64,000 nt of DNA from the NCBI GenBank assembly GCA_947627205.1, contig CANQVE010000008.1, positions 6,944-70,943 on the forward strand. The letters run 5' to 3'. Origin of the DNA: an uncultured Clostridia bacterium. Its GTDB lineage: Bacteria; Bacillota; Clostridia; Oscillospirales; Ruminococcaceae. This document shows, piece after piece, positions 16,775 through 34,298 of the stretch (its first letter is position 1; every line of letters starts with the position of its first letter). The notes below the pieces were generated by a model. It had not been told where the DNA came from. It searched no databases and saw nothing but the letters and a program-made list of their open reading frames with translations. The translations under genes were made by a program, and so were the position numbers.

Positions 16775-16848
16775 GCGGATATAGTTTATCGGTAAAACAT
16801 TAGCTTCCCAAGCTGAGGTGGTGGGTTCGACTCCCATTATCCGCTCCA
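16775..16848 (+). tRNA. tRNA-Gly (anticodon CCC)
   Basis: GCGGATA acceptor stem, anticodon arm TTAGC-TTCCCAA-GCTGA, T-loop GGTTCGACTCC, encoded CCA. Confidence 0.95.
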
Positions 16849-17056
16849 CGCATTGAAGCCCGCCTTTACGGCGGGCTTCAACGTTGCACATTTGCCCTAA
16901 CGGCAATTCAATTTTGCTCGCTGTGCTCGCAAAACCGTAAAAATGCGCACTCCCCGAAAAGTGGTTTAGGTATATTGGGCAGAAAAATCTTTTTTGTAAA
17001 GGTTAGACATTTAGAAATAAGAGGTAAGAATTTGAGATTCTTACCTCTTATTTCTT
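16849..17056 (+). repeat. tRNA-abutting repeat element (copy 1)
   Basis: CGCATTGAAGCCCGCCTTTACGGCGGGCTTCAACG...CGCAAAACCGTAAAAATGCGCACT..CCGAAAAGTGGTTT...GTAAAGGTTAGACATTTAGAAATAAGA, homologous to 23243-23490. Confidence 0.8.
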
Positions 17057-17420
17057 TTATAACAAACTTGCTTTAATAAGGGAAACAAACTTTCGGCTTG
17101 AACTCTTACTTCTTATCTCTAACCTCTTACCTCTAAAAGCGCAATTCAATTTTGCTCGCTGCGCTCGCAAAACCGTAAAAATGCGCTGGCGTTGTTTTTC
17201 TTGGATAAGGTTTTTGAGGTAAAAATTTGTATCGAACGATTGTTCGCTCATTTCTTACCTCTTATTTCTTTTTTTATTCGTTAATTTCAGCAAACAACAT
17301 CTTGGCTCAAACTCTTACCTCTTACTTCTTACATCTTACCTCTAAAAGCGTAAAAATGCGCTGATGTTGCTTTTCTTGGATAAGGTTTTTGAGGTAAGAA
17401 TTTGTACCGAACAGATATTC
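17039..17420. repeat. Imperfect ~180-210 bp tandem duplication built from CTCTTAC/TAAGAGG heptamer arrays
   Basis: TTCTTACCTCTTATTTCTTTT, CTCTTACCTCTAAAAGCG and TTTCTTGGATAAGGTTTTTGAGGTAA each occur twice in the same order. Confidence 0.7.
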
Positions 17421-17469
17421 GCCGAGTTCTTATCTCATTTCTCGGAAAACGAGGATTATTACTCGTAAG

Positions 17470-17584
17470 TTGACTTTTGCAGAAAATTGTTGTATAATAA
17501 TCGCAGAGCGATTATTATACATTTATGTCCATGCACATCCGCAAAATTTTTTACAAAATTTTGCTTCGTGCGGTAAGGGACATA
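17470..17584 (+). promoter_or_regulatory. Sigma-A promoter + long-hairpin leader cassette (copy 1)
   Basis: TTGACT-17-TATAAT (17470-17498), then TATGTCC..GCAC..GCAAAATTTT-TTAC-AAAATTTTGC..GTGCG..GGACATA; near-identical to 31738-31850. Confidence 0.75.
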
Positions 17585-17609
17585 ACTAATTTTTCAGAAC
17601 GGAGAATAT

Positions 17610-18350
17610 ATGAATACAGAAAACAACGATATGCAAATAAGCAGTGACAGGACCGACACGCAAAAGGAGCGCAGGCATTTTTTTACGAAAAAGAGAATAA
17701 TTGCTCTTTCGGTTGTTGCAGCATTGATTTTATTCAATGTGTTTGATATTTTCATTGATCCGCCCGCATGGTGGAGATTTGAGCGTCAGGAGGATAAGCG
17801 GGCGATGTTGAAATATGTAAAAGACAATTATCCCGACACAATAAAAATACTTGATATGTCATTCCCTGTCCAGCTTCCGGCTGGTCCTCATCAAGCTAGT
17901 AGTATGCAATTGGAACTTGACGGTGTAGTTTTTAATGTCGGAGCAAAATACGGTAAGATTATTTTTGACAGTTACTACTATAGGAAAGCAGCCACACAAT
18001 TTGACAAAATTATTAAAGACGGATTCTTTAATCCGCGAAACATCACAGCATCACTCGACTATTCTTTTACTGACAATTATGAAACTGCAGCTCCATACAC
18101 GGGCGGTTTAGGGTTAGAAATTATAATTGTTGATCAAGGTGCAACAGCTCGGGAAGTCGGCTGGATATATGATTTCTATAAATTTTGGCAAAATGAGGGC
18201 GCTTTCCTTAGGGATTACAAGGTTTGGATACTTATATACCAAAACGCAGAGGAAAAGGAACGGATCATTTGGGACAAAGAAACCGATTTTTCAGATGAGC
18301 TTGATTTTTTCTATGCCATAAGACATAATGACGGAATTTTGCTCGACTAA
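17610..18350 (+). CDS. Hypothetical membrane-anchored protein (accessory to ABC exporter)
   Basis: 246 aa; N-terminal TM (IIALSVVAALILFNVFDIFI); GGAG RBS. Confidence 0.7.
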   Translation: MNTENNDMQISSDRTDTQKERRHFFTKKRIIALSVVAALILFNVFDIFIDPPAWWRFERQEDKRAMLKYVKDNYPDTIKILDMSFPVQLPAGPHQASSMQLELDGVVFNVGAKYGKIIFDSYYYRKAATQFDKIIKDGFFNPRNITASLDYSFTDNYETAAPYTGGLGLEIIIVDQGATAREVGWIYDFYKFWQNEGAFLRDYKVWILIYQNAEEKERIIWDKETDFSDELDFFYAIRHNDGILLD

Positions 18351-18605
18351 TGCGCACATCATTTTCTCCTAGCGAAATTTTTAATAGATCCTCATTTAAA
18401 GGATATTTTATATTTCTTTTACAATAATTTATGATAAATATACAAATTACCGCCGAGAAATCGGCGGATTTTTATGCTTTTAGTATATTGCAATATATAG
18501 TACCTTGTGATATAATTAAACTGTATAGAAAGATATTGAAAATTCTTGTTATGCGCGGCAGGCAAAAAACGTCCTATATATTATTTTCTGCAAAAGGAGA
18601 AAACA

Positions 18606-19769
18606 ATGTTCAAAAAATACATCTTAAACTCATTCAGAAAAAATCCTATAAGATACGTTGCTATAATGCTCTGCGAGATAGTTCTGCTCGGCGTTTCGCT
18701 TTTTGCAAGCTGTACGGTGATGAATTATGTTATCGAAAAGAACTATGTTGTGGAAAATGCAAAGGGATTTACTTTTTCATTTCCCGATGTTGAGGGTTTA
18801 AATAATGACGATCCTAAATACGCCGAGGAAATTGCAAAATGTCCTGAAGCTGAAAGCCTAAGAGAAAGGATATATGAATTTTGCAGACGCTCGCCTGTTG
18901 AATTGTCATATATGTCTATAAGACTTGCCGATGATAAATATAAATATACTGTTACAGATTACTACTTTGTTACATACGACGACCTTGTGGATTTCTATGA
19001 GAAATCAATGTCAATGTCTGCGGGTTCGTATCCTACCGAAGAACAGTATTTAAATCACGAAAAGGTCGCTGTTATCGGAATGCTCCCAACATGGATGGGA
19101 CGAGATCCGTTCGCCTATTCCGATGAAAGTCATGTACTTTTCGGAGAAAATGACGACGAATATCTTGTTGTCGGGAATAATCCCATAAACGATTGTTTCA
19201 GCATTTTATGGGGAAGCGAGCCGGATAATTCAAAGGTTTGTTCTGTCGCTCTTATCTCAAAGGACTTAGTGTCAGATGAACAGAAAAAAGAAACAGAAGC
19301 CCTGTTTAAAGAAATAGTCGCTCCCGATATAAATATTGCAAACACCTGGCTCCCAAGCAACGACGGCTTGCTTGAGATACGCAAAAGCGTTTCTATCGTC
19401 ATAATGACGTTGGCTCTGCTCGTAATATCCGCATTTATTATTCTTGCGATCTTTAAGTATATGACAGACGAGCGCAGAAACGAGTATGCCGTTTTGAGGC
19501 TTTGCGGATACGGAAAATTTACGGCATTGGCTTTTCCGCTTGTTGAGATAATTTCTATTTCGGTGGTGTGTTCGGTTTTGTCGTGCGTTATTTTCTCGCT
19601 TTTCATTCCGCTTTTAAAGACGTTTTTCCCTGTTGTTTCGGTGTTGTTTGACTTCGGATTTTTTGCGGCTTTTACAATAGGATTTATAGCAATAACGGCT
19701 ATTATGTTCGCTGTTTATATTGCCCCGTCGCTGAACAAATCAATAAGCGATGAGCTTAGGGAAATGTGA
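18606..19769 (+). CDS. ABC transporter permease (FtsX/MacB-like)
   Basis: AGGAG RBS, ATG 18606; N-terminal TM, extracellular loop, ERRNEYAVLRLCGY motif followed by 3 TMs. Confidence 0.8.
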   Translation: MFKKYILNSFRKNPIRYVAIMLCEIVLLGVSLFASCTVMNYVIEKNYVVENAKGFTFSFPDVEGLNNDDPKYAEEIAKCPEAESLRERIYEFCRRSPVELSYMSIRLADDKYKYTVTDYYFVTYDDLVDFYEKSMSMSAGSYPTEEQYLNHEKVAVIGMLPTWMGRDPFAYSDESHVLFGENDDEYLVVGNNPINDCFSILWGSEPDNSKVCSVALISKDLVSDEQKKETEALFKEIVAPDINIANTWLPSNDGLLEIRKSVSIVIMTLALLVISAFIILAIFKYMTDERRNEYAVLRLCGYGKFTALAFPLVEIISISVVCSVLSCVIFSLFIPLLKTFFPVVSVLFDFGFFAAFTIGFIAITAIMFAVYIAPSLNKSISDELREM

Positions 19770-19779
19770 GGTGAAATAA

Positions 19780-20943
19780 ATGAAATATTTAAAACTTTCA
19801 TTATCTTCTATAGGAAAGAACAAACTTACATTTCTGCTCATTACCATTGAAATAGCTGTTCTTCTGCTCACTGTCAATTTTATGGTTTCAACTATTTCCG
19901 ACCGGCAAATGCTTACAAAGGGTTATGAGAAAATTTTGGGAGATAATTCGGCGTTTGTCTGGGATATCAATTTCACCCAAAATAAAATAAACGGTCTTGC
20001 GAATGATATGAAAGGATCGCGAGAGCTTATACTTTCCGACATAACGGATGAATATGAAATACACGAGGCTGTGTCGGTATATGCACACTTAATGAATGCA
20101 GACAACCTTATTGTGGTTTCCGATGAGATCTATGACAATCTGGCTTTACCTCTTGTGTCGGGAGATTATTCGGGAGCAATAGCAAGTTTTAATTATCCGA
20201 ACGACAATTGTTTCGGTTCATATAACGTAGATTATCAGGAAAAAGCTAAGGATTTCTACTTAACTATTTCGGGAAAACTTACTCCCGACACATACATTCC
20301 TCTTATGCGCTCATTCAGCAGTGCAAATGACTTTACGACCAAAGACCTTTATGTTGATTCAAGCGAACTTGACAACTTTGTAATTTGCAGAAAAAGCGAT
20401 CTTGAAGAGGAAGTATTGTCATATTGCGGAGTGTATGAAATGGGATTTATTATCCGCTTCCCCGAAAACTATGATGAGAACATAGCTAAACTCAAACAGA
20501 AAGCAGGCGTTCAAGAGGGCAAAGCGATCCTCGAAAACTCGCAAAAGGCTTTGTGGGAGGACTTGGCGGATTTCATTCCCGTTGTGATCTGCATTTTGCT
20601 TGTGGTAATAATCGGCACAATGAGCATTTCCATTATCTTAAACAAATACAATGAAAAACGCGGCGGGGTGCTTTGGATATGCGGTTTCAGCAGACGGCAA
20701 ATATTGTTCGCGCATTTTGTGAATATGCTTATAATTTTTGTTGTCGCGGCGATTTTGAGCGTAGGAGCATTTTTCATAATGTCGCTTTTGCAAATAGAAC
20801 TTGTCGTTTCGGCAAATCTTTCAATTGCAAATATAATAGCAACTGTCGCTCTGTCATTGATTTTGATTTTAGCGTCAATGATAATCCCGGCGATAAAGAG
20901 CAAAAACACTTCACCTGTTGAATATCTGAGGAGGGCGAAATAA
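19780..20943 (+). CDS. ABC transporter permease (FtsX/MacB-like)
   Basis: Same topology; KRGGVLWICGFSRRQI, C-terminal SPVEYLRR. Confidence 0.8.
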   Translation: MKYLKLSLSSIGKNKLTFLLITIEIAVLLLTVNFMVSTISDRQMLTKGYEKILGDNSAFVWDINFTQNKINGLANDMKGSRELILSDITDEYEIHEAVSVYAHLMNADNLIVVSDEIYDNLALPLVSGDYSGAIASFNYPNDNCFGSYNVDYQEKAKDFYLTISGKLTPDTYIPLMRSFSSANDFTTKDLYVDSSELDNFVICRKSDLEEEVLSYCGVYEMGFIIRFPENYDENIAKLKQKAGVQEGKAILENSQKALWEDLADFIPVVICILLVVIIGTMSISIILNKYNEKRGGVLWICGFSRRQILFAHFVNMLIIFVVAAILSVGAFFIMSLLQIELVVSANLSIANIIATVALSLILILASMIIPAIKSKNTSPVEYLRRAK

Positions 20944-21115
20944 AGTATACAGTTTACAATGTACAGTAAACAGCAAAGGTATCTGCTTCGCAGATGAAAT
21001 TTAGATTGTTTAAAATGACCGCAAACCGTTCGGCAGATTATGTCGATTTAATCTAAAAACAATCTAAATCCAAACATTAGTTCTAGCATCTAGCTTCTGA
21101 ATTTCTAGTTTCTAG
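20944..21115. repeat. Hybrid heptamer-ended repeat (TACAG left end, CTAG right end)
   Basis: AGTATACAGTTTACAATGTACAG..GTATCTGCTTCGCAGAT..TAGATTGTTT...AACAATCTA..TTCTAGCATCTAGCTTCTGAATTTCTAGTTTCTAG. Confidence 0.7.
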
Positions 21116-21127
21116 GAGGGCAAAAAA

Positions 21128-21790
21128 ATGATTGATTTAAGGAACATAACAAAAGTCTACAACCCAAAAAAGCACAATGAATTTACGGCGCTTAACGACG
21201 TAACATTAAAGATAAACGACGGGGAATTCTGCGCTGTCATCGGGAAATCGGGTTCGGGCAAATCGACGCTTCTGCACATAATAGCATTGCTCGATAAATT
21301 TTCTTTTGGGGATTATTTTCTGAACGGAAAGGACGCTGCGAAAACTCCCGAAAGCGCCGCGGCAAAATACCGCGCGAAAAACATCGGCTTTGTAAAGCAG
21401 GATTTCGCGCTTATTGAGGACTACACCGCGCTCGACAATGTAATGCTCCCGCTTTATCCGATAAAAGCAAAGGATAAAAAGAAAAAGGCGCTTGCGGCGC
21501 TGAAGAAAATGGGAATTGAAAGGCTTTCGGAAAAGGAAACGCGTAAGCTCTCGGGTGGCGAGAAACAGCGCGTTGCCATTGCGAGGGCAATCGTAAACGA
21601 GCCGAGCATAATTCTTGCGGACGAGCCGACGGGTTCGCTCGACAGCAAGACCGCCGCCGAGATCATGAGCGTTTTCAAACAACTCAATGCCGAGGGGAAA
21701 ACCGTTGTTATCGTAACGCACGACCAAGGTATCGCGAAGCAGTGCAGCAGGATAATTGAAATCTCGGACGGAAAGATAATTTCGGCGTGA
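21128..21790 (+). CDS. ABC transporter ATP-binding protein (LolD/MacB-like)
   Basis: GKSGSGKST Walker [15 protein letters not shown] signature, [12 protein letters not shown]. Confidence 0.92.
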
Positions 21791-21921
21791 CTTATTATAC
21801 GTTCTGTTAAGCGAACAGCCTTTCGGTTCAAGTTCCTATCTCTTACTTTTTATGTTGACAAAATATATTAAGATGTGCTATAATAAAAATGCTGATAAAA
21901 ACTGCAAGCAAAGGGGCGGGA

Positions 21922-22938
21922 ATGATAATGAACTTTTACGATATGACCGTTGATAAATTAAGAAAATTTCTCGCCGAACAAAACGAAAATCCCTCAAAGG
22001 CTCTTTTGCTTTTTGACGGGATATACCGCAAGGGCTTTGATGATTTCGGGCAGTTCGGGTTCAGCGGGCGTGTTGTAAATAAACTGTCAGGCTTTAAACT
22101 TGAAACGCCCGAAGTCGTGCGAAAATTAGACGGCGGTGACGCCGCAAAGCTCTTGCTGAAACTCTCCGACGGCAATTTCTGTGAAACGGTACTTATGCGT
22201 CAGAGGTTTGGAAACTGCGTTTGCGTTTCAACTCAGGTGGGCTGCAACATGGGCTGTAAATTCTGCAGGAGCGGTATGCTCAAAAAGCAAAGAAACCTTT
22301 CGGCAGGAGAAATAGTCGGACAGCTCATAGCTATTTCAAAAGAGTTTTCATGCAGGATAGACGGCGTTTCAGTCATGGGAATCGGCGAGCCGTTCGACAA
22401 TTTTTCTGCTGTTTCGGATTTTTGCGCCATAATAACCGAGGACAAAGGGCTTGCAGTTTCAAGAAGAAAAGTCACTGTTTCGACCTGCGGGATCGTTCCG
22501 AAAATACGGGAGTTTGCGGATATTAAAGCGCCCGTGAGCCTTGCGGTAAGCCTGCATGCGCCGAATGACAAGCTGAGAACAGCGCTTATGCCCGTAAACA
22601 AGCTCTATCCCATAAATGATGTTCTTGACGCGGCGGAGTATTATTCAAAAAAGACAAACAAGCGCGTTACTCTTGAATATATCCTTTTGGCGGGGATAAA
22701 TGACAGTGAAGCGCACGCCAAAGAACTTTCCGAGCTTATTCACGGCAGAGATTTTTACATCAACCTTATTCCGTACAACGAGACCGACACCGAGTTTAAA
22801 AAGCCGTCCTCGGACGTTGCGGACAATTTTTGCCGTGTTCTGAAAGAAAACGGCGTTGTCGCAACAAAGCGCAAGGAATTCGGCGCGGAGCTCAAAGCCG
22901 CCTGCGGACAGCTCGCTTCGGTTTACGAGGACAATTGA
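21922..22938 (+). CDS. rlmN: Dual-specificity RNA methyltransferase RlmN (radical SAM)
   Basis: CVSTQVGCNMGCKFC, MGIGEPFDN, SLHAPND.LR, NLIPYN, AACGQL; start uncertain (21889/21922/21928). Confidence 0.85.
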   Translation: MIMNFYDMTVDKLRKFLAEQNENPSKALLLFDGIYRKGFDDFGQFGFSGRVVNKLSGFKLETPEVVRKLDGGDAAKLLLKLSDGNFCETVLMRQRFGNCVCVSTQVGCNMGCKFCRSGMLKKQRNLSAGEIVGQLIAISKEFSCRIDGVSVMGIGEPFDNFSAVSDFCAIITEDKGLAVSRRKVTVSTCGIVPKIREFADIKAPVSLAVSLHAPNDKLRTALMPVNKLYPINDVLDAAEYYSKKTNKRVTLEYILLAGINDSEAHAKELSELIHGRDFYINLIPYNETDTEFKKPSSDVADNFCRVLKENGVVATKRKEFGAELKAACGQLASVYEDN

Positions 22939-23109
22939 GAATAAAACGAGATTGTTAAAAAGTATGTGCCGATATCAAAAGGCACGACTATAAATTTCGG
23001 CGCTGTAAACTTTGACATAAGCCGTTATTCAAAGGTTTTGCCTTGTTTTAAGGGAAAATCAGCCATTTTGCCGAGCTTTTACAAAACTAAAAAAAATTTT
23101 AAAAAACCC

Positions 23110-23138
23110 TTGACAATTCGATAAGTATGTGATATAAT
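23110..23138 (+). promoter_or_regulatory. Consensus sigma-A promoter of tRNA-Leu
   Basis: TTGACA-17-TATAAT with upstream A-tracts (UP element-like). Confidence 0.85.
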
Positions 23139-23157
23139 TAAATAGTCGTCAGGAAAT

Positions 23158-23242
23158 GCGAGTGTGCTGGAATAGGCAGACAGGCTAGCTTGAGGTGCTA
23201 GTGTTTCACGACGTGTGGGTTCAAGTCCCGTCACTCGCACCA
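23158..23242 (+). tRNA. tRNA-Leu (anticodon GAG)
   Basis: GCGAGTG acceptor stem, D-loop GGAATAGGCAGAC, arm CTAGC-TTGAGGT-GCTAG, long variable arm, GGTTCAAGTCC, encoded CCA. Confidence 0.95.
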
Positions 23243-23490
23243 CGCATTGAAGCCCACCTTTACGGTGGGCTTCAACGCTGCGTATTTTTACTTTGAAATT
23301 CCCTAATGGAATTTCAATTTTGCTTCGCAAAACCGTAAAAATGCGCACTTCCCGAAAAGTGGTTTTAAATTATAACTTGCAAAAATCTTTTTTGTAAAGG
23401 TTAGACATTTAGAAATAAGATGTTAGAGGTAAGAGGTAAGAATCTAGCGTAACGGTGGTTAGCTAATTTATTCCTCTTATCTTTTTTTGT
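23243..23490 (+). repeat. tRNA-abutting repeat element (copy 2)
   Basis: CGCATTGAAGCCCACCTTTACGGTGGGCTTCAACG...; homologous to 16849-17056, ends in TTAGAGG/TAAGAGG heptamers. Confidence 0.8.
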
Positions 23491-23553
23491 AAGATTTCAG
23501 GATTTTAAACGCATAGATATATAGATCAAGCTTGATAAATATAACGGGGTGAT

Positions 23554-24096
23554 ATGTTGACGGATGTGGAACTGCTTGAACTTCTGAAAACAAAGCCCGA
23601 AAAGGGCATAAATGCGCTTTTAAAGCAATACGGCGGGCTTGTGTATGCGGTAGTCAGGCGAAAACTTTCGGGGCTGAATTTTGCCGAAGCGGATATTGAA
23701 GCCTGCGCCGCCGACACTTTCAGCGAATTTTATACCGACATTTGTAAATTTGATCCCGCAAAAGGAAGTATAAGAGCCTGGCTCTGCGTTATTGCTCGGC
23801 ATAATGCCGCAGACATTATAAGGCGGAACGCGCCTTTGCCTTTGGACGACGAGCTGAACGCCGCCGACTGCTCGCTTGAAAGCGACCTCGAAGAACAGGA
23901 AATGCGAAAAGCCGTTTTAGAAGCAGTAAAGGCATTAGCCGAACCCGACCGCGAAATACTTATGCGAAAGTTCTACCTCGGCGAAAGCTCAAAGGACATA
24001 GCAAAAAGGCTTAAAATGACGGTGTCAAATGTAGACACAAGAACGAGCCGCGCTGTTGAAAAACTTCGCAAAAGTCTTGAAGATTGGAGGAAATGA
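23554..24096 (+). CDS. ECF sigma-70 factor
   Basis: DIEACAADTF, KGSIRAWLCVIARHNA (region 2); DREILMRKFYLGESSKDIAKRLKMTVSNVDTRTSRA (region 4). Confidence 0.88.
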   Translation: MLTDVELLELLKTKPEKGINALLKQYGGLVYAVVRRKLSGLNFAEADIEACAADTFSEFYTDICKFDPAKGSIRAWLCVIARHNAADIIRRNAPLPLDDELNAADCSLESDLEEQEMRKAVLEAVKALAEPDREILMRKFYLGESSKDIAKRLKMTVSNVDTRTSRAVEKLRKSLEDWRK

Positions 24097-25616
24097 GAAT
24101 GAAATATTCTTTGGACAATTTATTAGACGAATTAACTCCCGGCGAGCTTGATGAAATAATGCCCGATAATATTGACGTCAATTTGTCGGGTAAGACGCTT
24201 CGCGGCGTCAGGAAAAGAGTTCTTAAAAATGCAAAGATAAAGCCCCGGCATTTAAGCGTAAAGATAGCCGTACCCGCCGCCTGCGTTGCTGTTGCTGCGG
24301 GAGTAGGAGGCTTTGCAATTGCAGAGGAGGCGAAGGAATACAACTCGGCGGTCGAGTTTTTCGAGGAGAACGGCTTGTCGTCCGAGGGGCTGAGCCGTGA
24401 TGATCTGAAGGCGGTATACCGCGACATAACCACAAACAGCTTTACAAACGGAAAAACCGCCGAGGTGTTCAGAAACTCTGTCGCAGGAACGGAGATACTT
24501 CAGAGCGAACCCTCTCCCGACGAGCTTGAATATTTCTGGAACAACAACGTAAATACAAGCACATACGCATACACCAAAGAAACGCCCGTGAAATATTCCA
24601 TTGATTATGTCGGCAGCAAAAGAGGCGACGATCATGAAAAAGTTACGGTAAAATGCGAAAAGAACGGCGCTGTTTTATGGACGGCCGATTTCCCGAATTT
24701 CGGAACAAGGTGGGAGGACGACGACCTTTATATTGAACAGGCGCAGTATATTTCGGACAAGACCGCTGTTATCGGTTCAACTTGCCATTACAGAGTAGTT
24801 ACCTCAGGCAGTAAGTCGGACGGCGTTACACACAGCTTTCTGACCTTGATTGACAACAGCGGAAACAAACTTTGGACGCACAGTTTTGACCATGGTTTTG
24901 ACTGGGATTATTTGTACAGAGTTGTTGAAAACGGGGATAATCTGATTTGTCTGGGAGTGTGCGACAATGATTGTCTGTTCTTCACCGAACTTGACAAAAA
25001 CGGAAACGAGATTAATTTCAACAAGGCGAAAATCGACGGCATTATTGACGTAAGAAACGCCGTAAAGCTCGGCAATGAGTATCTTGCGCAGATTTGGACC
25101 GATAGCGGCGAAAGGCTCGTAAAAATTGACGAGAACGGATACGTGACCGAAAACTATTTCTACGAAAGCGACGACTGCGACTACAGCATAGTTGATATGG
25201 CAGAATTTGAGGGGAAAGTTTATCTGTCGGCTTATTCATTCCCTAAGGGGGAAAGCGGCGCATATAGCGAACACGATTCGCTCTGGGATGCTATTGCAAG
25301 CAGAAACTCAGATGAACCGTTTGATATAACAGAGCATATCCGCGAATTTTACACGGCTGTCCTGCTTGTATGCGACCCGAACGGCGGAAAGCCCGAAACA
25401 TTCTGGTCGGCAAAAAATGCTCTCGGAGGCGACCTTGACGTTTCTGACGGAGAGCTTATCTGGGATGTCAAAAGCATAGTAAATGCGGGATTTATGCCGT
25501 ATGTAAGCAGTTATCCCTTCACAGGCAACTGCAAGGTTTACCGTTATACGTTCGATACTTCGGGGAAACTGACAAATTGCGAGGATACGGGGAAATATGT
25601 GCCTTTCGCCAGATGA
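24093..25616 (+). CDS. Probable membrane-anchored anti-sigma factor with extracellular beta-rich (propeller-like) domain
   Basis: ATGA overlap with the sigma stop; short cytoplasmic N-terminus, TM (IAVPAACVAVAAGVGGFAIA), repeated D..G...W motifs. Confidence 0.7.
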   Translation: MRMKYSLDNLLDELTPGELDEIMPDNIDVNLSGKTLRGVRKRVLKNAKIKPRHLSVKIAVPAACVAVAAGVGGFAIAEEAKEYNSAVEFFEENGLSSEGLSRDDLKAVYRDITTNSFTNGKTAEVFRNSVAGTEILQSEPSPDELEYFWNNNVNTSTYAYTKETPVKYSIDYVGSKRGDDHEKVTVKCEKNGAVLWTADFPNFGTRWEDDDLYIEQAQYISDKTAVIGSTCHYRVVTSGSKSDGVTHSFLTLIDNSGNKLWTHSFDHGFDWDYLYRVVENGDNLICLGVCDNDCLFFTELDKNGNEINFNKAKIDGIIDVRNAVKLGNEYLAQIWTDSGERLVKIDENGYVTENYFYESDDCDYSIVDMAEFEGKVYLSAYSFPKGESGAYSEHDSLWDAIASRNSDEPFDITEHIREFYTAVLLVCDPNGGKPETFWSAKNALGGDLDVSDGELIWDVKSIVNAGFMPYVSSYPFTGNCKVYRYTFDTSGKLTNCEDTGKYVPFAR

Positions 25617-25643
25617 GCATTAAAACAAGCGAGGTGAATTTTT

Positions 25644-25769
25644 ATGAAAAAAGTAATCATCATTTTTTCGGGAATATTTTTAGCAAGCGCCATTTTAACA
25701 CTAAGTCATTTTACAAAAAACACATCAGCCGATGCAATACATCCAAATTCAGTAATTGCCGAAAGGTAG
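25644..25769 (+). CDS. 41-aa secreted-type peptide (not in ORF track)
   Basis: GAGGTG RBS; MKKVIIIFSGIFLASAILTLSHFTKNTSADAIHPNSVIAER*; basic N-terminus, hydrophobic core, A-x-A site. Confidence 0.55.
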   Translation: MKKVIIIFSGIFLASAILTLSHFTKNTSADAIHPNSVIAER

Positions 25770-25870
25770 TCCGCTTATTTCTCACTTTTAAATAATCTCA
25801 ACGAACTTCTTTCCCGCTCAAAAGTAAATGCAATTCAAGGGCGGTTTTACGCTCAAAACATCTTTGTAAG

Positions 25871-26104
25871 ATTGCCGTTTCAAAGCACGGCTTTGAAACG
25901 GCAATGCGGGGAAAACTCTTGTTTTCCCCGCACCCTTTAGCGCTAAGAATCGTTATTGAGGGAAAACTTTTTTGAAAAAAAGTTTTCCCTCAAACTCCTT
26001 TTCAAAAAACTTTCGTGCGCCCGCCAGTTAGGCGGCTTGAACGGAAAAGCGCTTCGCCGCTCAAAACAAATTCTAGCCTCTAACTTCTAACCTCTAGCCT
26101 CTAG
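25871..26104. repeat. Cluster of three palindromes plus a CTCTAGC heptamer array
   Basis: ATTGCCGTTTCAAAGC/GCTTTGAAACGGCAAT; GCGGGGAAAAC/GTTTTCCCCGC; GAGGGAAAACTTTTT/AAAAAGTTTTCCCTC; TTCTAGCCTCTAACTTCTAACCTCTAGCCTCTAG. Confidence 0.7.
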
Positions 26105-26139
26105 ATGGGTTTTCCCCCTTGCGCGTCTTTGTGCCTGAA

Positions 26140-27228
26140 TTATCTCTTGATGTCGTAGTTCATATTCATCAGGTTGCGAATACTCTGAACGTCGTCGGTG
26201 ATATTTCCGTCGCCGTGGATAGTATGCTTGATAACGCTTGATGCAACAGCGAAGTTTATCATATCTATCGGCTTGAAATTATTCATCATAGCATAGATAA
26301 GTCCGCTCGCGAATGCGTCGCCACCGCCGACTCTGTCAAGGATATTGAACGTAAACAAACGGCTCTCAAACGTATGTCCGTCATACCACATAAACGCTTT
26401 AAGGCTGTTCTCGCTTCCGCTGTGAGCATAGCGTACATGGCGCGCAATGCACTTTAAGTTCGGATATCTGTCGACAAAGTGGCAGAACACTTCTTCCTGT
26501 TCCTCATAAGATGGCTGGAGCGGAACACCGTCTTTCCAGTCGCCCTTTGAATGGTCGTCCTCGTCTTTCCAGAGATGATAAGGTTCAATTCCAAGAAGAA
26601 CGTCAACATAAGGCAGGCACTCCGTGCAATAGTCGCGCGCTTCTTCCCAGCTCCAGAGCTGACTTCTGAAGTTTCCGTCAAAGCTGACTATAAGTCCCTT
26701 TTCCTTTGCCTTTTTAATACAGTTCATGATAAGTTTACGGCAGTTCTCTCCGAGCGCGGGAGTAATTCCGCTCAAGTGAAGCCAATTAAATCCCTCAAGA
26801 AGCGAATCAATGTCGTAGTTGTCAAAGTTATACTCGGTTATAGCGCTGTGCATACGGTCGTATGTAACCTTGCTCGGGCGTATTCCGTAGCCTGTTTCAA
26901 GGTAATAAGTACCGAGCCTGTGGGTAGGCGTCTCCTCGGCTGTGGACAAAATAACGGGCGTGCAATGAACGTCGTTTGAACGAAGCATGCGCACTGCGCT
27001 CTTTCCGAGGCTGTTGTTGGGAACAACGCTGAAAAACGTACTGTCAACGCCAAGGTTTGCAAGCGCAAGAGCGATATTGGCTTCACTTCCTCCGTAGCTT
27101 GCTTCAAACGTAGAAGCCATACGGATCTTCTCATAGTTCGGGGGAGTAAGGCGAAGCATTATCTCGCCGATAGTTATAAATTTCTTTTGGTTTCCGTCTT
27201 TGGGGAGCAGAGGGTTATAATGTTCCAT
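26140..27228 (-). CDS. kdgK: PfkB-family sugar kinase, 2-keto-3-deoxygluconate kinase-like
   Basis: ITIGEIMLRLTPP, GGSEANIA, LHLSGITPAL, SFDGNFRSQLW, DRVGGGDAFASGLIY; AGGAG RBS before ATG 27228. Confidence 0.8.
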   Translation of the reverse strand: MEHYNPLLPKDGNQKKFITIGEIMLRLTPPNYEKIRMASTFEASYGGSEANIALALANLGVDSTFFSVVPNNSLGKSAVRMLRSNDVHCTPVILSTAEETPTHRLGTYYLETGYGIRPSKVTYDRMHSAITEYNFDNYDIDSLLEGFNWLHLSGITPALGENCRKLIMNCIKKAKEKGLIVSFDGNFRSQLWSWEEARDYCTECLPYVDVLLGIEPYHLWKDEDDHSKGDWKDGVPLQPSYEEQEEVFCHFVDRYPNLKCIARHVRYAHSGSENSLKAFMWYDGHTFESRLFTFNILDRVGGGDAFASGLIYAMMNNFKPIDMINFAVASSVIKHTIHGDGNITDDVQSIRNLMNMNYDIKR

Positions 27229-27321
27229 AGTTTTTCTCCTTAAAAGTGATATAAGAGAAAAATATTCTCTATCAATTATTATACACCATACACAGGAAAA
27301 TTTCAAGTGGGGAAATTGAAA

Positions 27322-27522
27322 AGTTTACAGTATACAGGGTACAGTATGCAGTAGTAGGTATCCGCCTTACGGCGGATAAGATTTAGATCGTTTTTGAACA
27401 ATAGGCACACTAGCAAACTTTTATTGTTACGTTCCAAAACGTTTAAGTTTGATAACAATCCAAAATTATCCGCGAAGCGGATACCATAACTGACTACTGT
27501 CCGCTGTACCCTGTATACTTGC
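27322..27522. repeat. Heptamer-ended palindromic interspersed repeat, copy C
   Basis: TACAGTATACAGGGTACAGTATGCAG..TATCCGCCTTACGGCGGATA..ATAGGCACAC..AAAACGTTT..GATAACAATC..TATCCGCGAAGCGGATA..CTGTACCCTGTATACTTGC. Confidence 0.8.
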
Positions 27523-27526
27523 ATAT

Positions 27527-27557
27527 AAAAACCGCTCCCGCCTGTTACAGCGGGAGC
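27527..27557 (-). terminator. Intrinsic terminator of the large ncRNA
   Basis: Minus strand GCTCCCGC-TGTAACAG-GCGGGAGC-GGTTTTT. Confidence 0.75.
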
Positions 27558-27559
27558 CT

Positions 27560-28155
27560 CAATTATTCAATTTTAAATTCATCCTGCTTGTAAGCTGAAG
27601 TATTACATCGGACCGTACCTCTCAATAAAATTCGTACTTCACACAAATTTTACCGCCCATGGGACTCAATCCTTTCGGTCAAATTTTCCTCTCCGTAATT
27701 TCAAAGCGCACATTCTAATCACCTAATTCTTTTTGGGGGTTATATGTAAACGCCTCTGAGCGACTTCGTCGCTGCAAGCGGTAGAAAAATGTCTGCGGAC
27801 TGCCTACTCGCAAAGGTTTTTATCAAACGGGTAATGCCCCTCACATCAGCGTATCGACGCACTCACTCGCGCGGATAAACACTCTCAAATTCGACCTAAG
27901 CGGTCGGCGGAACACGAATCCGCAGACTGTTCAAAAAATCCCTCGCTCATTTCCATTGGACTCGCTTCCTTTCTGCTTCAAGCTGAATTTTTTCGGCTTT
28001 CATTGCCGTAGGATAATTCCTCATCTCTCACCGATTACTTAGCTATATACCTATAGACCTTTCTTCGGGTTTAAATCAGATACCCATCGGACTGAACCGC
28101 CTTTCTTGGTTTTTACTTTAAGGAAGATCCGCCGTCGCGGTCTGTCTTTCCTTGT
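27560..28155 (-). ncRNA. Large structured ncRNA, ROOL-like (~600 nt)
   Basis: ORF-free; own promoter and terminator; long-range helix GTCTGCGGA/TCCGCAGAC and several hairpins; segments CTATAGGT..GCTAAGTAATC..GAGAG, AATGAAAGCCGAAAAAA..AGCTTGAAGCAGAA, GAGTGAGT..ATACGCT, GTTTGATAAAA match my recollection of ROOL conserved blocks (not computed). Confidence 0.7.
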
Positions 28156-28161
28156 GATTAT

Positions 28162-28190
28162 ATAATAACATATTTTTTGTTAAAAGTCAA
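28162..28190 (-). promoter_or_regulatory. Sigma-A promoter driving the large ncRNA
   Basis: Minus strand TTGACT-17-TATTAT with extended -10 TG. Confidence 0.7.
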
Positions 28191-28393
28191 TAGAAGTTTT
28201 TAATTTTTTTGTTGTGAATTTGTATATATTTTTAAAAATCAATTTGGGCAAACTAATGATAATTTCATGTAATGCACGTCAAAACGCTGTTTTTCATAAA
28301 TTTCCTATTGACACAAAACAAAAAATAGTGTAAAATAATAAAGTCGGCGTTATTCATATCTGAAAATACTGCGCCGAAAAAGGCGGCGGTAAA

Positions 28394-28711
28394 ATGGCTG
28401 AAAATAACGATGCATTTCTTGACGAAGAAGAGGGAATAATTGAACTTGAGGACGAAGACGGAAACGTCACGAGATTTGAGTTTGTAGATCGTGCCGAGTA
28501 TAACGGAACGGTTTATTATGCGCTTATTCCCGACGACGCCGAAGACGAGGGCACGGCTGAATTTGTCGTTCTGAAAGAACAGGAAGTCAACGGCGATATA
28601 ATGCTCGCAACTGTCGATGACGACGACGAATACAACGAGGTCGGAGAGATGTTTCTGAAAAGATTTTCTGAACTGCCAGATCTTGAAGAGCCCGAGGACG
28701 ACAATCTTTAA
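28394..28711 (+). CDS. DUF1292 family acidic protein
   Basis: IIELEDEDGNVTRFEFVD..EYNG..YYALIP...DDDEYNEVGEMF. Confidence 0.8.
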   Translation: MAENNDAFLDEEEGIIELEDEDGNVTRFEFVDRAEYNGTVYYALIPDDAEDEGTAEFVVLKEQEVNGDIMLATVDDDDEYNEVGEMFLKRFSELPDLEEPEDDNL

Positions 28712-28763
28712 TTTTGTTTACATACTGCCTTGCAGCGCGAATGTGTGCTGTTATAATCCCAAC

Positions 28764-28925
28764 ACATTGTAAAAGGGATCTCGACTCCGTCAGCGGATTG
28801 CAGACCTCCTGTTCCGAAAGGACAGTTGGCGGGAGCGTGAAACTGTCGGGCGACTTTACCCACCCTGCTATTTGCGGGTTTTATATTGCATCTTACGGCA
28901 AGGCGGTACTTTTAAAAATTACGCA
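28764..28925 (+). ncRNA. ssrS: Probable 6S RNA (ssrS)
   Basis: Downstream of TTGCAG..TGTTATAAT; contains GGGAG then ACCCACCCTGC..GCGGGTT..ACGGCA blocks typical of Firmicute 6S; 5'/3' arms partially complementary; ends approximate. Confidence 0.5.
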
Positions 28926-29108
28926 GAGGGGCATTTGCTCCGCTTTTTCGGGACAGCACTGTATAATAACCGTAAAAACGCTTGTTATACAAAACTGTTC
29001 GTAAAGTCACATCTGCGAAGCCGGCGGCAATGCAACACAGGCAAAGTTGCATTGCCGTTTTGGCGTTATGCGTTTTGAGCACAATAAACGGTCCGAAAGG
29101 AGGCCGCT

Positions 29109-29633
29109 ATGGCTGAATTTTATGAGATATTGGTAAAAGAACTTGAAAAGGCTTTTGTAAAGGAACTTTGGGAAATACGGCGCGCTGCGGGAGATGAAAA
29201 GATCTATGCCGCCGCGCTTTTAACGGACAGCAACTGTACTTCTGTTTCACTTTATGTAAATACCCTTGAACATCTTACCCGAACGCTCGGCGAAAACACT
29301 TCCGATGAGAAATTAAAATGGAAAATAGAAAGCTGGGGTTATTCGGACCGAATGAACGGCAGAAAAAGTCTGCTTTTAAAATCGTGTCAAATGCTTTCAA
29401 TTCATGACAAAAAGGATCATGACGAGCACATGAGAATGCGGGATGTGTTTATTGAAACGGCGGTTTCGGCATTCAGGCGGGCAATACTTAAACACCCGCT
29501 GACGGCAGACACCGATGATGTGACCTATTACATCTCTATTTCGGACAGCGACGAGGCGAAAAGGCTCGAAAACTTTTCCTCGAAAATGCTTAATTCAAAA
29601 GCAGTGTACAAGGAATTTTTCAAAAGGTCATAA
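29109..29633 (+). CDS. DUF4303-like protein
   Basis: EKIYAAALLTD...SLYVNTLE...KWKIESW...YYISISD pattern; AGGAGG RBS. Confidence 0.55.
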   Translation: MAEFYEILVKELEKAFVKELWEIRRAAGDEKIYAAALLTDSNCTSVSLYVNTLEHLTRTLGENTSDEKLKWKIESWGYSDRMNGRKSLLLKSCQMLSIHDKKDHDEHMRMRDVFIETAVSAFRRAILKHPLTADTDDVTYYISISDSDEAKRLENFSSKMLNSKAVYKEFFKRS

Positions 29634-29668
29634 AGTAAACGGCACTACAACTTCCGAATGGTGAACAA

Positions 29669-30028
29669 ATGAAAGCAAAGTATTATATAAAGCAGATAAT
29701 TATTCTTGTGGTGTGGTTTCTGGCAATGGCATGGCTGGTATACGATCTTGTAAAAGATGAAGCAGAACTTAGGAATGTACTTGCAGATGACGATTATCCG
29801 AGATACATTGAAAGCGCGCCGGAAGCCGTAACATTTCCTATAAACATAAACACCGCAACTTTGCGCGAGCTTAAAGCCATTGAGGGTATCGGCACAGCAA
29901 AAGCCGAAGCCATAATCGGCTATCGCGAGGAAAACGGCGGTTTTTCATCTGTTGACGAGCTTATAAACGTAACAGGCATAGGAAAGGCAACTCTTGAAAA
30001 GATAAGGAAATATGTTACTGTCGGGTGA
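29669..30028 (+). CDS. comEA: ComEA-like helix-hairpin-helix DNA-binding protein (short form)
   Basis: N-terminal TM; ININTATLRELKAIEGIGTAKAEAIIGYREENGGFSSVDELINVTGIGKATLEKI. Confidence 0.8.
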   Translation: MKAKYYIKQIIILVVWFLAMAWLVYDLVKDEAELRNVLADDDYPRYIESAPEAVTFPININTATLRELKAIEGIGTAKAEAIIGYREENGGFSSVDELINVTGIGKATLEKIRKYVTVG

Positions 30029-30035
30029 ATAACAG

Positions 30036-30070
30036 CTCTAGAGGTAAGAGGTTAAACTCTTGCCTCTAAC
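30036..30070. repeat. Short TAAGAGG-heptamer hairpin
   Basis: CTCTAGAGGTAAGAGGTTAAACTCTTGCCTCTAAC after the comEA stop. Confidence 0.55.
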
Positions 30071-30192
30071 CTTTTAAAACATTATACAAATTATTTCAGT
30101 CACACCCATACATGTATATTGTCGGATAAAAACCAAAAAACCGAATATCAACATACCTGTCTGCAATTAAATAAAGTTGTTTTATATTAAAA

Positions 30193-31587
30193 TTACTGTC
30201 CTTTCAGCTTTTCAGCAATATTTTTAAAGAAAGGCTTAATTCCTGCATATATAGGCAAATATAATTTATTCAGCTTTTCGTTTAAAGCATCTGACACATC
30301 AAGCAATGCGGATATGTCTGTTTTCTTTTTATGAGACAGGAATGGGGACATAAACATAACGGCGGTTTGTGAAAAAATCGCCGCGGCAGCGGCTTGAAAA
30401 TCCCCTTGCTCTTTTTTTATTTTATCAATAAACCGTGTAATGTTGTCCATATATATTTCCCCAATGTCCGCCGCCTCTTTTCCGTCCTTTGTAAACAGCA
30501 GACTGAGCAATGCGGGAGCCGACGCCATAATTATTCCCTTTACCGTATCTTTTGCTGAAACAAAATCGCCGTTGACAGGGACAGTTGAATTGCCTAAGAT
30601 CCTTTGCAGTATGCTCATTATGCTTAGTGTTATGTACTGCCTTTCCGACGGCTCAATTGCCATTATAGTGTGTGACAGGTTTTGCATATATTGTGATATA
30701 TCCCCCTGGACATCTTGTTCATTTAATCTTCCGTCATTGTCCGTAAGTGTTTCAACATAGTGGTAAGCAAAGGGACTGTCGCTAATATCCGGGGACTTTA
30801 AGAAATAGATCTGTTCCGCAGGTGCAAGCGGCTCGCCTAAAACATTGACAAAATCGTTATCAGCGGAAAAGCTGTATATTTTTCTTCTGCGCTCTTCAAA
30901 AGATTTGCCGAATTTTTTCTTGAACATTGTCATTGCCTCAGGCGAAAATCCCTGACCGTCAAAGCTGATACACATATCAGCAAAGCGGGAATTTATCGTG
31001 ACGAACTGTGCCTTATTGCCTCCCTTTGAGTGTCCTGAAAGTATTATGCGCGTATTTTCGTTCCAGCCGTTTTCCCCGCATATCCTGCTGAACCAGTTTA
31101 AAGCCTCAGCTTGTTGGTCGGTGGCATAATCCTTTTCAACGGCGGCAGTGTATAGGAGCTGACCGAATTTATCGTATTTTTCATACAGATTGTATTCGGG
31201 TATGCCGGACAAACTTTCCCCGTTATCTATCCATTCACCCGCACCTGTACCTGCGAAAATTACATAAACCGTTCCCGTGCCGTGAACAAAGGTGCAGGCT
31301 TTCATTCCGCCGTTTTTGTTGTTGTAGTCTACGGCAAAGTTTCCTATTACCGAATTTGCAAGCGCATTGTCTGCCATGCAGGCTTTTTGTATTATTTCAG
31401 AACGCTTTTCAAATTGAGACTTTTCCATTTCTTTTAAAGTGCTTGTATCCATGTTTTTCAGGTCAGACGCAATATCCGAAAGTTTGTCTCCGTTCCTCAC
31501 ATTTTCAGAGGTCAGAAGATATAAAAAAATATTGTAGACAATTGCCGTGTTTGCAATATTCAAAACTGATTTATCAATATTGTTCAA
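30193..31587 (-). CDS. Mbeg1-like/DUF2974 alpha/beta-hydrolase (lipase-like)
   Basis: YVIFAGTGAGEWIDNG, nucleophile elbow LSGHSKGGNKAQF, SFDGQGFS, DFVNVLG; TTG start behind GAGGGGGG. Confidence 0.8.
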   Translation of the reverse strand: MNNIDKSVLNIANTAIVYNIFLYLLTSENVRNGDKLSDIASDLKNMDTSTLKEMEKSQFEKRSEIIQKACMADNALANSVIGNFAVDYNNKNGGMKACTFVHGTGTVYVIFAGTGAGEWIDNGESLSGIPEYNLYEKYDKFGQLLYTAAVEKDYATDQQAEALNWFSRICGENGWNENTRIILSGHSKGGNKAQFVTINSRFADMCISFDGQGFSPEAMTMFKKKFGKSFEERRRKIYSFSADNDFVNVLGEPLAPAEQIYFLKSPDISDSPFAYHYVETLTDNDGRLNEQDVQGDISQYMQNLSHTIMAIEPSERQYITLSIMSILQRILGNSTVPVNGDFVSAKDTVKGIIMASAPALLSLLFTKDGKEAADIGEIYMDNITRFIDKIKKEQGDFQAAAAAIFSQTAVMFMSPFLSHKKKTDISALLDVSDALNEKLNKLYLPIYAGIKPFFKNIAEKLKGQ

Positions 31588-31737
31588 AAAAACACCCCCC
31601 TCTGCATATTATACGCGAAATGCCTTAACATTGACCAAACAAAATGTCAATCTAGATAGCTATGCCTTGAAGTAATGATAATAAAACACCCTGCCGTTGT
31701 CTGAACTTTTGGAGTTCGGATTACGGCAGGTGTCCGC

Positions 31738-31850
31738 TTGACATATTGCAGGCGATATGGTATAATAATCACAAGGCGATTATTATATGTTTATGTCCAC
31801 GCACATCCGCAAAATTTTTTACAAAATTTTGCTCCGTGCGGTAATGGACA
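31738..31850 (+). promoter_or_regulatory. Sigma-A promoter + long-hairpin leader cassette (copy 2)
   Basis: TTGACA-17-TATAAT then TGTCCACGCACATCCGCAAAATTTTTTACAAAATTTTGCTCCGTGCGGTAATGGACA; near-identical to 17470-17584. Confidence 0.75.
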
Positions 31851-31892
31851 ATTATATCATAAAGTAAAATTTAAATTAAAGGAGAAGTTAAA

Positions 31893-34286: not shown

Positions 34287-34298
34287 AAGGATCGTGAT

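Follow-up and report, generated by a model that had tools for sequence, protein, structure and literature searches.

A small hairpin-forming DNA element, probably mobile, located directly 3′ of extended −10 boxes in a genus of Ruminococcaceae

The window analyzed here (64,000 nt of contig CANQVE010000008.1, assembly GCA_947627205.1, genome G000) comes from an uncultured Clostridia bacterium of the Ruminococcaceae. An earlier note had described two stretches in which a promoter is followed by a long hairpin, and both were present as described. Their shared sequence was located as copies A and B. The parts are named after the full element: HP1, HP2 and HP3 are its hairpins, site L is the resident −10 box at its left end, and site R is the second −10 box at its right end. 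The features, in window positions, are as follows.

17,470 to 17,498, plus strand: native promoter of copy A, with −35 TTGACT (17,470–17,475), a 17-nt spacer and TATAAT (17,493–17,498), defined against the G011 ortholog.
17,499 to 17,581, plus strand: copy A, an 83-nt insert comprising the HP1 3′ arm, a spacer and HP2 (69.4 bits, model R1).
17,493 to 17,519, no strand: HP1 palindrome of copy A, TATAATAATCGC aga GCGATTATTATA, with the −10 box as its 5′ arm (covariation).
17,527 to 17,581, no strand: HP2 of copy A, a long interrupted hairpin with conserved internal loops (covariation).
17,610 to 21,790, plus strand: operon 3′ of copy A encoding a 246-aa protein, two FtsX-like permeases and an ABC ATPase.
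31,738 to 31,766, plus strand: native promoter of copy B, with TTGACA (31,738–31,743), a 17-nt spacer, TATGGTATAAT, and TATAAT at 31,761–31,766, defined against the G008 ortholog.
31,767 to 31,863, plus strand: copy B, comprising the HP1 3′ arm, HP2 (31,795–31,849) and the HP3 5′ arm (31,851–31,863) (77.8 bits).
31,761 to 31,787: HP1 of copy B.
31,893 to 35,768, plus strand: mcrB-like (AAA_5) and mcrC (McrBC family) genes behind copy B.

Copies A and B showed ~91% identity across ~91 nt, and the 24-nt hairpin tip occurred twice in the window against a chance expectation of 0. The similarity started at the extended −10 box, and the −35 hexamers and spacers differed and were locus-specific. The promoter at copy A is that of the membrane-protein/ABC-exporter operon, and its −10 box is the insertion target (site L). 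In the G011 ortholog, identical −35, spacer and −10 sequences are followed at once by the native leader and the element is absent; compared with this site, the native leader of the window starts again at 17,582, after copy A. No Pfam match was found for the 246-aa protein. The copy B promoter, also a target site L, lies downstream of a divergent Mbeg1-like gene, and the same promoter in the G008 ortholog is directly followed by a lipoprotein gene. A DNA search of five sister genomes did not recover the mcrBC genes of the window. The promoters at both window copies are those of the genes and not of the element. The shared unit is portable and fronts unrelated genes, as had been proposed, but it does not bring its own promoter and is not a duplicated or mobile promoter: the −35 and spacer lie outside the repeat, and sister species carry element-free orthologous promoters. 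Full copies do add a second extended −10 box, though they land in pre-existing promoters.

Beyond the window pair, five full copies and ~5 remnants were found in G000, with unrelated genes downstream, and at least seven clear copies plus remnants in one genome exceed what a single local duplication producing only two copies would leave. A full copy is non-coding and ~127 bp long, begins right after the resident TATAAT (site L) and terminates in its own GnTATAAT (site R), in the order −10 box, HP1, HP2, HP3 and second −10 box. In HP1 the resident −10 box is paired with an ATTATA inside the element, and in HP3 an inner ATTATAnC is paired with the GnTATAAT at the end; between them lies HP2, long, interrupted and with conserved internal loops. 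The 3′ module of full copies (HP3 3′ arm and second TATAAT) is missing from both window copies. Copy A has neither HP3 nor the second −10 box, and in copy B unrelated DNA takes the place of the HP3 3′ arm and second −10 box, with a breakpoint near the HP3 apex. Both copies are immobilised, 3′-truncated derivatives of the full element, A having lost HP3 and R; breakage of B near the HP3 apex would have left the acquired mcrBC joined to the resident promoter. The number of elements per genome ranged from 0 to 44 across 41 genomes of the genus, all compared genomes being metagenome assemblies in which repeats break contigs, and ~98 non-redundant copies were collected for analysis. Tandem arrays of 2–3 units with one box in common were also present.

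In the three hairpins, 98% of the cells were paired (Watson–Crick) and 20 of 37 pairs showed double, compensatory changes. The observed pairing and covariation were reached by 0 of 500 shuffles, and slid controls paired at 26–48%. The AAAATTTT stem was swapped for unrelated yet complementary sequences in other subfamilies, and the loop regions showed weak 9–10-nt similarity in some subfamilies only. The ends of the element are two different self-complementary hairpins, with no terminal inverted repeats. TATAAT-initiated palindromes in G000 were family members only, apart from one chance hit, ruling out a palindromic −10 box as a general feature of the organism. G·U pairs were not in excess in the hairpins (16, against 19 A·C); since they were no commoner than A·C mismatches, the substitution pattern favors selection acting on the DNA or on mobility over selection acting on RNA.

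Insertions abutted the 3′ side of the extended −10 box (TGnTATAAT) in resident sigma-A promoters, and the element was always oriented toward the gene. A same-strand ORF with a Shine-Dalgarno motif was found at 52 of the 57 usable loci, its median distance downstream being 61.5 nt. At least four of the six −35 positions matched at 63 of 86 L sites versus 3 of 81 R sites, and the same score was reached at 147 of 176 TRTGnTATAAT sites genome-wide, all sites being counted. After insertion, the resident −35, spacer and −10 are intact, and a second extended −10 box now precedes the original start region of the gene.

The base at −13 was the same in L and R in 58 of 69 distinct loci (permutation mean, 34.3) and differed in 11 of the 69; the R base paired with the HP3 arm in 67 of 69. 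At the 20 loci in which R was not G, L equalled R in 18 and HP3 was matched in 19, and the R–HP3 match was kept at loci where L differed from R. This variable base, which precedes TATAAT, agrees among the left box, the right box and the HP3 inner arm, and the agreement suggests that targets are chosen through homology or base pairing. The 8-bp GnTATAAT present on both sides of full copies and once in empty sites behaves as a shared core, and it may be an 8-bp target duplication with later drift of L after insertion.

Empty-site alleles, which the earlier note had suggested looking for, were found in sister species at the bipA, hpt-ftsH, ssrA and ABC-operon promoters. The bipA promoter was empty in G003, filled in G000, G008 and G011, and empty in ~28 other species. 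The hpt promoter (hpt-ftsH) was empty in G003 and G008 and filled in G000 and G011. The ssrA promoter was empty in G011, full in G003 and G008 and internally deleted in G000, and in G010 and G021 an insertion of a different subfamily occupied the same promoter. The ABC-operon promoter of copy A was empty in G011. The junction in filled sites fell exactly after TATAAT, with the −35 and spacer native at each locus, and at these four loci the element was inserted alone, without cargo, in an otherwise unchanged promoter–gene unit.

Since the same orthologous promoter can be cleanly empty in one sister species and filled in another, the element reads as mobile. In our view the shared sequence is probably (roughly 0.8) mobile DNA of a non-autonomous kind, specific for both site and orientation, that integrates directly 3′ of the extended −10 sequence (T)GnTATAAT of sigma-A promoters. 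The empty sites could instead reflect precise excision or direct-repeat recombination, and mobility or instability would still be implied. The target would be recognized through homology or pairing with the terminal box or the ATTATAnC arm of the element, acting as a shared core or guide, and not by simple staggered-cut duplication, and movement would depend on some enzyme acting in trans or encoded by the host. The resident promoter L would still fire and read through the element, placing the hairpins in the 5′ leader, and insertions in the ssrA, bipA and hpt-ftsH promoters may be tolerated for this reason.

A classical MITE, formed by deletion from a DDE insertion sequence, with an 8–9-bp staggered-cut target duplication and a chance preference for TGnTATAAT, is an unlikely alternative. 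Like such MITEs the element is small, non-coding, multi-copy and polymorphic for insertion between relatives, and this origin would accommodate both the copy-number bursts and the 8–13-bp direct repeat that surrounds full copies and is single in empty sites. Plain duplication, however, predicts no match between the HP3 inner arm and the site-specific repeat base, as seen in 19 of the 20 non-G cases, nor its persistence where L and R differ. Terminal inverted repeats are also absent, the ends being separate hairpins, and no parent IS was found.

The strong covariation of three helices, the constant co-orientation close to the downstream gene and the stability of HP2 in the predicted 5′ leader would suit a cis-regulatory RNA leader or small RNA (riboswitch- or attenuator-like) whose structure is selected and which was copied along with a promoter. 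This reading, which the earlier note had raised as a new cis-regulatory RNA, is disfavored and in our judgment very unlikely. G·U was not enriched over A·C, the HP1 5′ arm is the −10 box and is untranscribed from that promoter, the ribosome-binding site is unsequestered, and no terminator-like T-run follows the hairpins. The downstream genes are functionally unrelated, the same housekeeping promoter occurs with or without the element in sister species, and tandem arrays exist. Rfam searches with gathering and E-value thresholds matched the element to no known family.

An integron-like attachment or recombination site for gene capture, which would place acquired cassettes behind resident promoters, has only a slim chance of being correct. 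The proposal held loosely, in that at the copy B site homology between species stops precisely at the −10 box and one promoter leads into different genes, that acquired mcrBC genes not found in five sister genomes lie behind copy B, and that the folded hairpins are reminiscent of attC sites. It failed at the four loci where the element sits alone in an unchanged promoter–gene unit. The 3′ end of mcrBC has no second site and an attC-type core is absent; integron attC sites lie at the 3′ end of a promoterless ORF and have a GTTRRRY core, whereas the element lies 5′ of genes with a TATAAT core. A cargo model for the window copies was rejected, as mcrBC is not followed by a right end and in G011 the ABC operon is native.

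The operator of a dimeric DNA-binding regulator over the −10 box, recognizing the HP1 palindrome or the AAAATTTT tip that the earlier note had considered and with the copies forming a regulon, is barely credible even though a palindrome overlaps the −10 box at every copy, for the stem positions vary compensatorily with no fixed bases, other subfamilies carry unrelated complementary sequences where the AAAATTTT tip would be, and orthologous promoters are polymorphic for the presence of the element.

For the mobile element, no linked transposase or recombinase was found. The Y1 HUH transposase (Y1_Tnp, PF01797) was absent from G000 (99.8% complete) and from G041 (44 copies), G050, G021 and G047; it occurred in 9 of 41 genomes of the genus, unrelated to copy number. 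The DEDD transposase (PF01548) of IS110, the bridge-RNA type of element, had matches in 6 of 41 genomes, no high-copy genome among them. Both were rejected as movers, as their presence does not track copy number. Every genome contained a ~600-aa, UvrC-sized GIY-YIG match, and extra matches did not track copy number either. The association with a small GIY-YIG gene known from the Ssn nuclease and its NTS/SRM hairpin repeats (PMC11893778) was not seen here, and an Ssn-type partner was rejected since small GIY-YIG genes do not follow copy number. A search for autonomous copies in G000 revealed no HP2 halves more than 200 nt apart, and solo HP1/HP3 matches in high-copy genomes, tried as autonomous copies, proved to be contig-end truncations or degenerate copies.

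Among known systems, the IS200/IS605-derived PATEs (palindrome-associated elements) and REP/REPIN sequences moved by Y1 (RAYT) transposases are likewise short, carry no genes and end in hairpins, not in terminal inverted repeats. They also share subterminal hairpins and strand-specific insertion beside a short fixed sequence resembling the element's own end. In IS608, cleavage sites are read through base pairing with an internal guide, and the three-way match among L, R and HP3 follows the same logic. In contrast to the PATE/REP systems, the Y1 transposase is missing from G000 and most high-copy genomes, the target is a promoter −10 box, there are three hairpins rather than two, and the complementary segment at the left end lies 3′ of the hairpin and not 5′. 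A self-guided single-strand or hairpin transposon is a tentative and rather improbable form of the mobile-element reading. ATTATAnC would pair with the promoter GnTATAAT, possibly melted in the open complex, and direct integration at the −7/−6 junction, and the mover would be an enzyme not recognized as a transposase and perhaps host-encoded. If so, this would be a novel kind of target selection, coupled to transcription initiation, and a natural means of rewiring promoters that leaves them intact.

Promoter-seeking transposons of the TnGBS/ISLre2 type likewise use sigma-A promoters as landmarks and avoid gene disruption. They are kilobases in length with a DDE transposase of their own, and their insertions fall 15–17 bp upstream of the −35 box; the element has no genes, and its insertions abut the −10 box on the 3′ side. 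XerCD/dif IMEX elements and integron attC sites resemble it in having a core on both sides, tandem arrays, folded single-strand sites and no element-encoded enzyme, but its core is TATAAT rather than dif or GTTRRRY, it has ~127 bp and no genes, and no recombinase is implicated. Correia elements (CREE/NEMIS, Neisseria) and ERIC are also small (~100–150 bp), multi-copy, hairpin-folding intergenic insertions with −10-like boxes able to drive neighbors. Correia elements carry 26-bp terminal inverted repeats, duplicate TA, insert in either orientation and need no promoter; the element has no such repeats, keeps to one orientation and settles at a pre-existing extended −10 box. Correia elements and other promoter-bearing MITEs such as ERIC have been cited as mobile promoter carriers, and putative mobile promoters (PMPs; Nijveen, Matus-Garcia, van Passel) are defined, within a genome, by non-homologous genes whose upstream sequences share ≥80% identity over ≥50 nt (PMC3575422). 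The element falls within this operational definition, but PMPs are a descriptive class without mechanism, whereas here the −35 and spacer fall outside the repeat and the point of insertion is placed to the nucleotide.

A literature search gave no mobile element that targets the −10 hexamer and restores it; this target specificity therefore looks undescribed. If the mobile-element reading is true, even essential genes (ssrA, bipA, hpt-ftsH) can have their promoters colonized by selfish DNA without much cost. The insertions would then provide natural experiments on promoter architecture, with a 127-bp structured spacer between the −35/−10 pair and the start site as well as a promoter with an extended −10 box only. 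The element may also foster promoter swapping or rearrangement at a fragile palindrome, as at the mcrBC junction. Annotators would need caution, as "conserved promoter plus leader" motifs from gut Clostridia may prove to be insertions, and the three-way complementarity would make guide-based targeting directly testable.

The element had no match in plasmid and phage collections. Sister families that share its layout have a patchy distribution in three further families of the order. Comparing DNA contigs from four other runs with the window gave a noisy picture, in which one short-sided joint of run X5 (17,264 to 17,596), very weakly supported, skipped copy A and the contigs of run X9 carried it.

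Both promoter–hairpin stretches that the earlier note had read as a portable promoter-leader cassette were confirmed as described by a sequence check, and the hairpin tip occurred twice in the window versus 0 expected. One stretch precedes a membrane-protein/ABC-exporter operon (copy A) and the other precedes mcrBC (copy B), with the following features.

Copy A, 17470-17475: −35 hexamer TTGACT, with a 17-nt spacer to the −10 box
Copy A, 17493-17498: −10 box TATAAT
Copy A, 17493-17519: HP1, a 12+3+12 palindrome with the −10 box as 5′ arm
Copy A, 17527-17581: HP2, an interrupted hairpin
Copy B, 31738-31743: −35 hexamer TTGACA
Copy B, 31761-31766: −10 box TATAAT
Copy B, 31761-31787: HP1
Copy B, 31795-31849: HP2
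Copy B, 31851-31863: 13 more shared bases

The two copies were alike only from the extended −10 box onward. The repeat is real, and its reading as a duplicated promoter was given up, since each copy has its own −35 hexamer and spacer and the promoters are native to their loci. The copies belong to a new genus-wide family of non-coding, −10-box-specific insertion elements that has sister families in other parts of the order, which is more interesting than a duplicated promoter would be.

The own genome (G000; 2.25 Mb, 54 contigs, 99.8% complete) contained five longer copies, the two window copies and remnants. Full copies were arranged in the order TTATGGTATAAT (site L, the resident −10 box), HP1, a short spacer, HP2 and HP3, a perfect 16-bp hairpin whose 3′ arm is a second TTATGGTATAAT (site R). 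The genes behind the copies were mutually unrelated and are listed below.

Own genome: bipA/typA
Own genome: hpt-ftsH, itself behind tilS
Own genome: aminotransferase gene with trpS
Own genome: rubrerythrin-like gene
Own genome: membrane protein gene
Own genome: AAA ATPase pair
Window, copy A: ABC exporter operon
Window, copy B: mcrBC

In C1:164004-167989, about 3.8 kb separates a diverged plus-strand copy from a full minus-strand copy; the two are oriented towards one another, each heading one of two convergent gene pairs (AAA ATPase and a 222-aa protein; a 368-aa membrane protein and a 92-aa protein).

Empty and filled sites were compared among genomes of the genus (G handles). At bipA, about 28 species have a native promoter ending GTTGTATAAT and then the leader; promoter and leader were element-free in G003, where the gene is 95% identical, and the same promoter and leader flanked a 127-bp insert ending in a second TTGTATAAT in G000, G008 and G011. 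The hpt site was empty in G003 and G008 (…TTATGATATAAT then leader) and filled in G000 and G011. At ssrA, which encodes tmRNA, the site was empty in G011, G003 and G008 had the full element, and G000 retained a remnant of HP1 and 11 nt of HP2 (locus L297, C1:74388-74485, minus strand), whose internal deletion also took part of the native leader. Another subfamily occupied the same promoter in G010 and G021, where R lies 10 nt ahead of the 5′ end of mature tmRNA. Across one set of four close species, the three housekeeping loci were filled and empty in different combinations; therefore, at least one precise loss or at least one parallel gain must have occurred.

The operon of copy A has an ortholog in G011 with the same −35, spacer and −10 and the native leader directly after; the 83 extra bases of G000 lie exactly between TATAAT and that leader. 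For copy B, G008 had the same upstream gene and promoter through TATGGTATAAT and then a lipoprotein gene. The G000 counterpart of this gene is on another contig, where its −35 and spacer are unlike those of G008; here too, homology started from TTATGGTATAAT. A search of five sister genomes gave no match to the mcrBC portion. In G002, the position corresponding to copy B and mcrBC of G000, about 280 nt past the Mbeg1-like ortholog, is taken by a CRISPR array (L205, contig C43; 36-nt repeat ending …GGGGCGGAGCGAC), so that this locus looks like a variable defence island.

The promoters at element sites are native to their loci and not borne by the element. A good −35 (match of at least 4/6 at 16-18-nt spacing) was detected at 63/86 L sites vs 3/81 R sites. 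Genome-wide, 147 (84%) of the 176 TRTGnTATAAT sites had a good −35, and specificity for a motif of 8-11 bp therefore suffices for constant siting in real promoters; the fixed orientation follows from the asymmetry of the target. At 52/57 usable loci, R was followed, at a median of 61.5 nt, by an ORF on the same strand that has a Shine-Dalgarno motif. The motif occurred 10 times in the 64-kb window versus 0.29 expected. Promoters of this organism are unusually near consensus.

L and R have GnTATAAT in common and may differ at −15 and −16. At −13, L equalled R in 58/69 distinct loci (permutation mean 34.3) and R paired with the HP3 inner arm in 67/69; among the 20 loci where R was not G, L equalled R in 18 and HP3 was matched in 19. 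At loci with unequal L and R, L varied, and R and HP3 usually retained the default G-C pair. The native base is idiosyncratic at bipA (TTG) and at hpt (GA), and at both sites the HP3 arm of the inserted copy was its complement. We propose that R and its complementary arm would travel with the element and that integration would favour sites that match this core exactly, whether by an overlap-homology requirement or by base pairing with an internal guide; the L/R/HP3 match would then be expected. An 8-bp duplication that later drifted and was compensated is also possible. A plain staggered-cut target duplication does not predict an HP3 arm complementary to a site-specific base.

RNAalifold predicted three helices, with 98% of cells paired and both-side changes in 20/37 pairs (172 cells). 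None of 500 shuffles attained any of five measures, and slid controls paired only 26-48%. G·U (16) was not commoner than A·C (19), the −10 box itself forms the 5′ arm of HP1, and HP2 kept the sequence of its basal stems and internal loops while its apical stem was swapped wholesale. No T-run of the intrinsic-terminator type followed HP2 or HP3; for both window copies, the predicted leader would have a stable HP2 and a free ribosome-binding site. We infer that the structure was selected at the DNA or mobility level, for example as a recognition hairpin, rather than as a regulatory RNA.

Copy A consists of the left part alone (HP1 and HP2), with HP3 and R both absent, and copy B retains only the 5′ arm of HP3. 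Breakpoints of copy B and several other R-less copies (L065, L082 and L144) fell within a few bases of the HP3 loop, suggesting that this perfect palindrome is a fragile site. Repair may then have joined new DNA (mcrBC at copy B) to the resident promoter and element stump. Inter-copy recombination and a subsequent precise loss would also explain different genes behind one promoter and the −10-box junction.

No element targeting the −10 box was found in the literature searched. By operational definition, the element counts as a putative mobile promoter (PMC3575422). In its workings it most resembles IS200/IS605, PATE or REPIN types, which are hairpin-ended and strand-specific, or core-sharing integrating elements. 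Membership tests placed it in none of these, nor among classical MITEs, Correia elements, integron cassettes or regulatory RNAs. Among genus genomes, element copy number was not tracked by Y1 transposase (absent from the own genome), IS110 DEDD transposase or small GIY-YIG nucleases, the last taken up on a lead from PMC11893778. A search of the own and high-copy genomes found no autonomous copy, which is weak evidence because MAG assemblies often lose IS copies.

A covariance model made from 64 full copies detected 0 to 44 copies per genome in 41 genomes of the genus; 11 had none, and the highest counts were in G041 (44), G050 (20), G010 (19) and G021 (16). No copy was found in plasmid and phage collections. 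A pattern scan of one genome per species placed the family in gut MAGs of rabbit, human and mouse labelled Oscillospiraceae, Clostridia or Ruminococcus. L-HP1-HP2-HP3-R elements with almost identical HP1 and different HP2 were found in three further families of the order as defined by GTDB (5 copies in one complete 2.4-Mb genome) and in 0 of 26 genomes from other genera of the own family, a patchy distribution that would fit horizontal spread.

Head-to-tail arrays of 2 or 3 units were also observed, with neighbouring units using one box in common. Some units in the tandem arrays L101 (2847-3043) and L152 (645-987) were fused by a deletion reaching from R to within the HP1 that follows (…GGTTAT|TATAC…), which shows slippage between repeated ATTATA/TATAAT blocks. 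A separate multi-copy repeat with arrays of CTTACCT-like heptamers occupies window positions 16849-17460 between a tRNA (16775-16845) and copy A, with dozens of matches in G003, G008 and G011. Contig C2:173000-181500 of the own genome is long and internally repetitive: a 350-nt segment from a G008 contig matches it over 100 times in staggered, self-like fashion at 70-75%. The region probably encodes a giant repeat protein.
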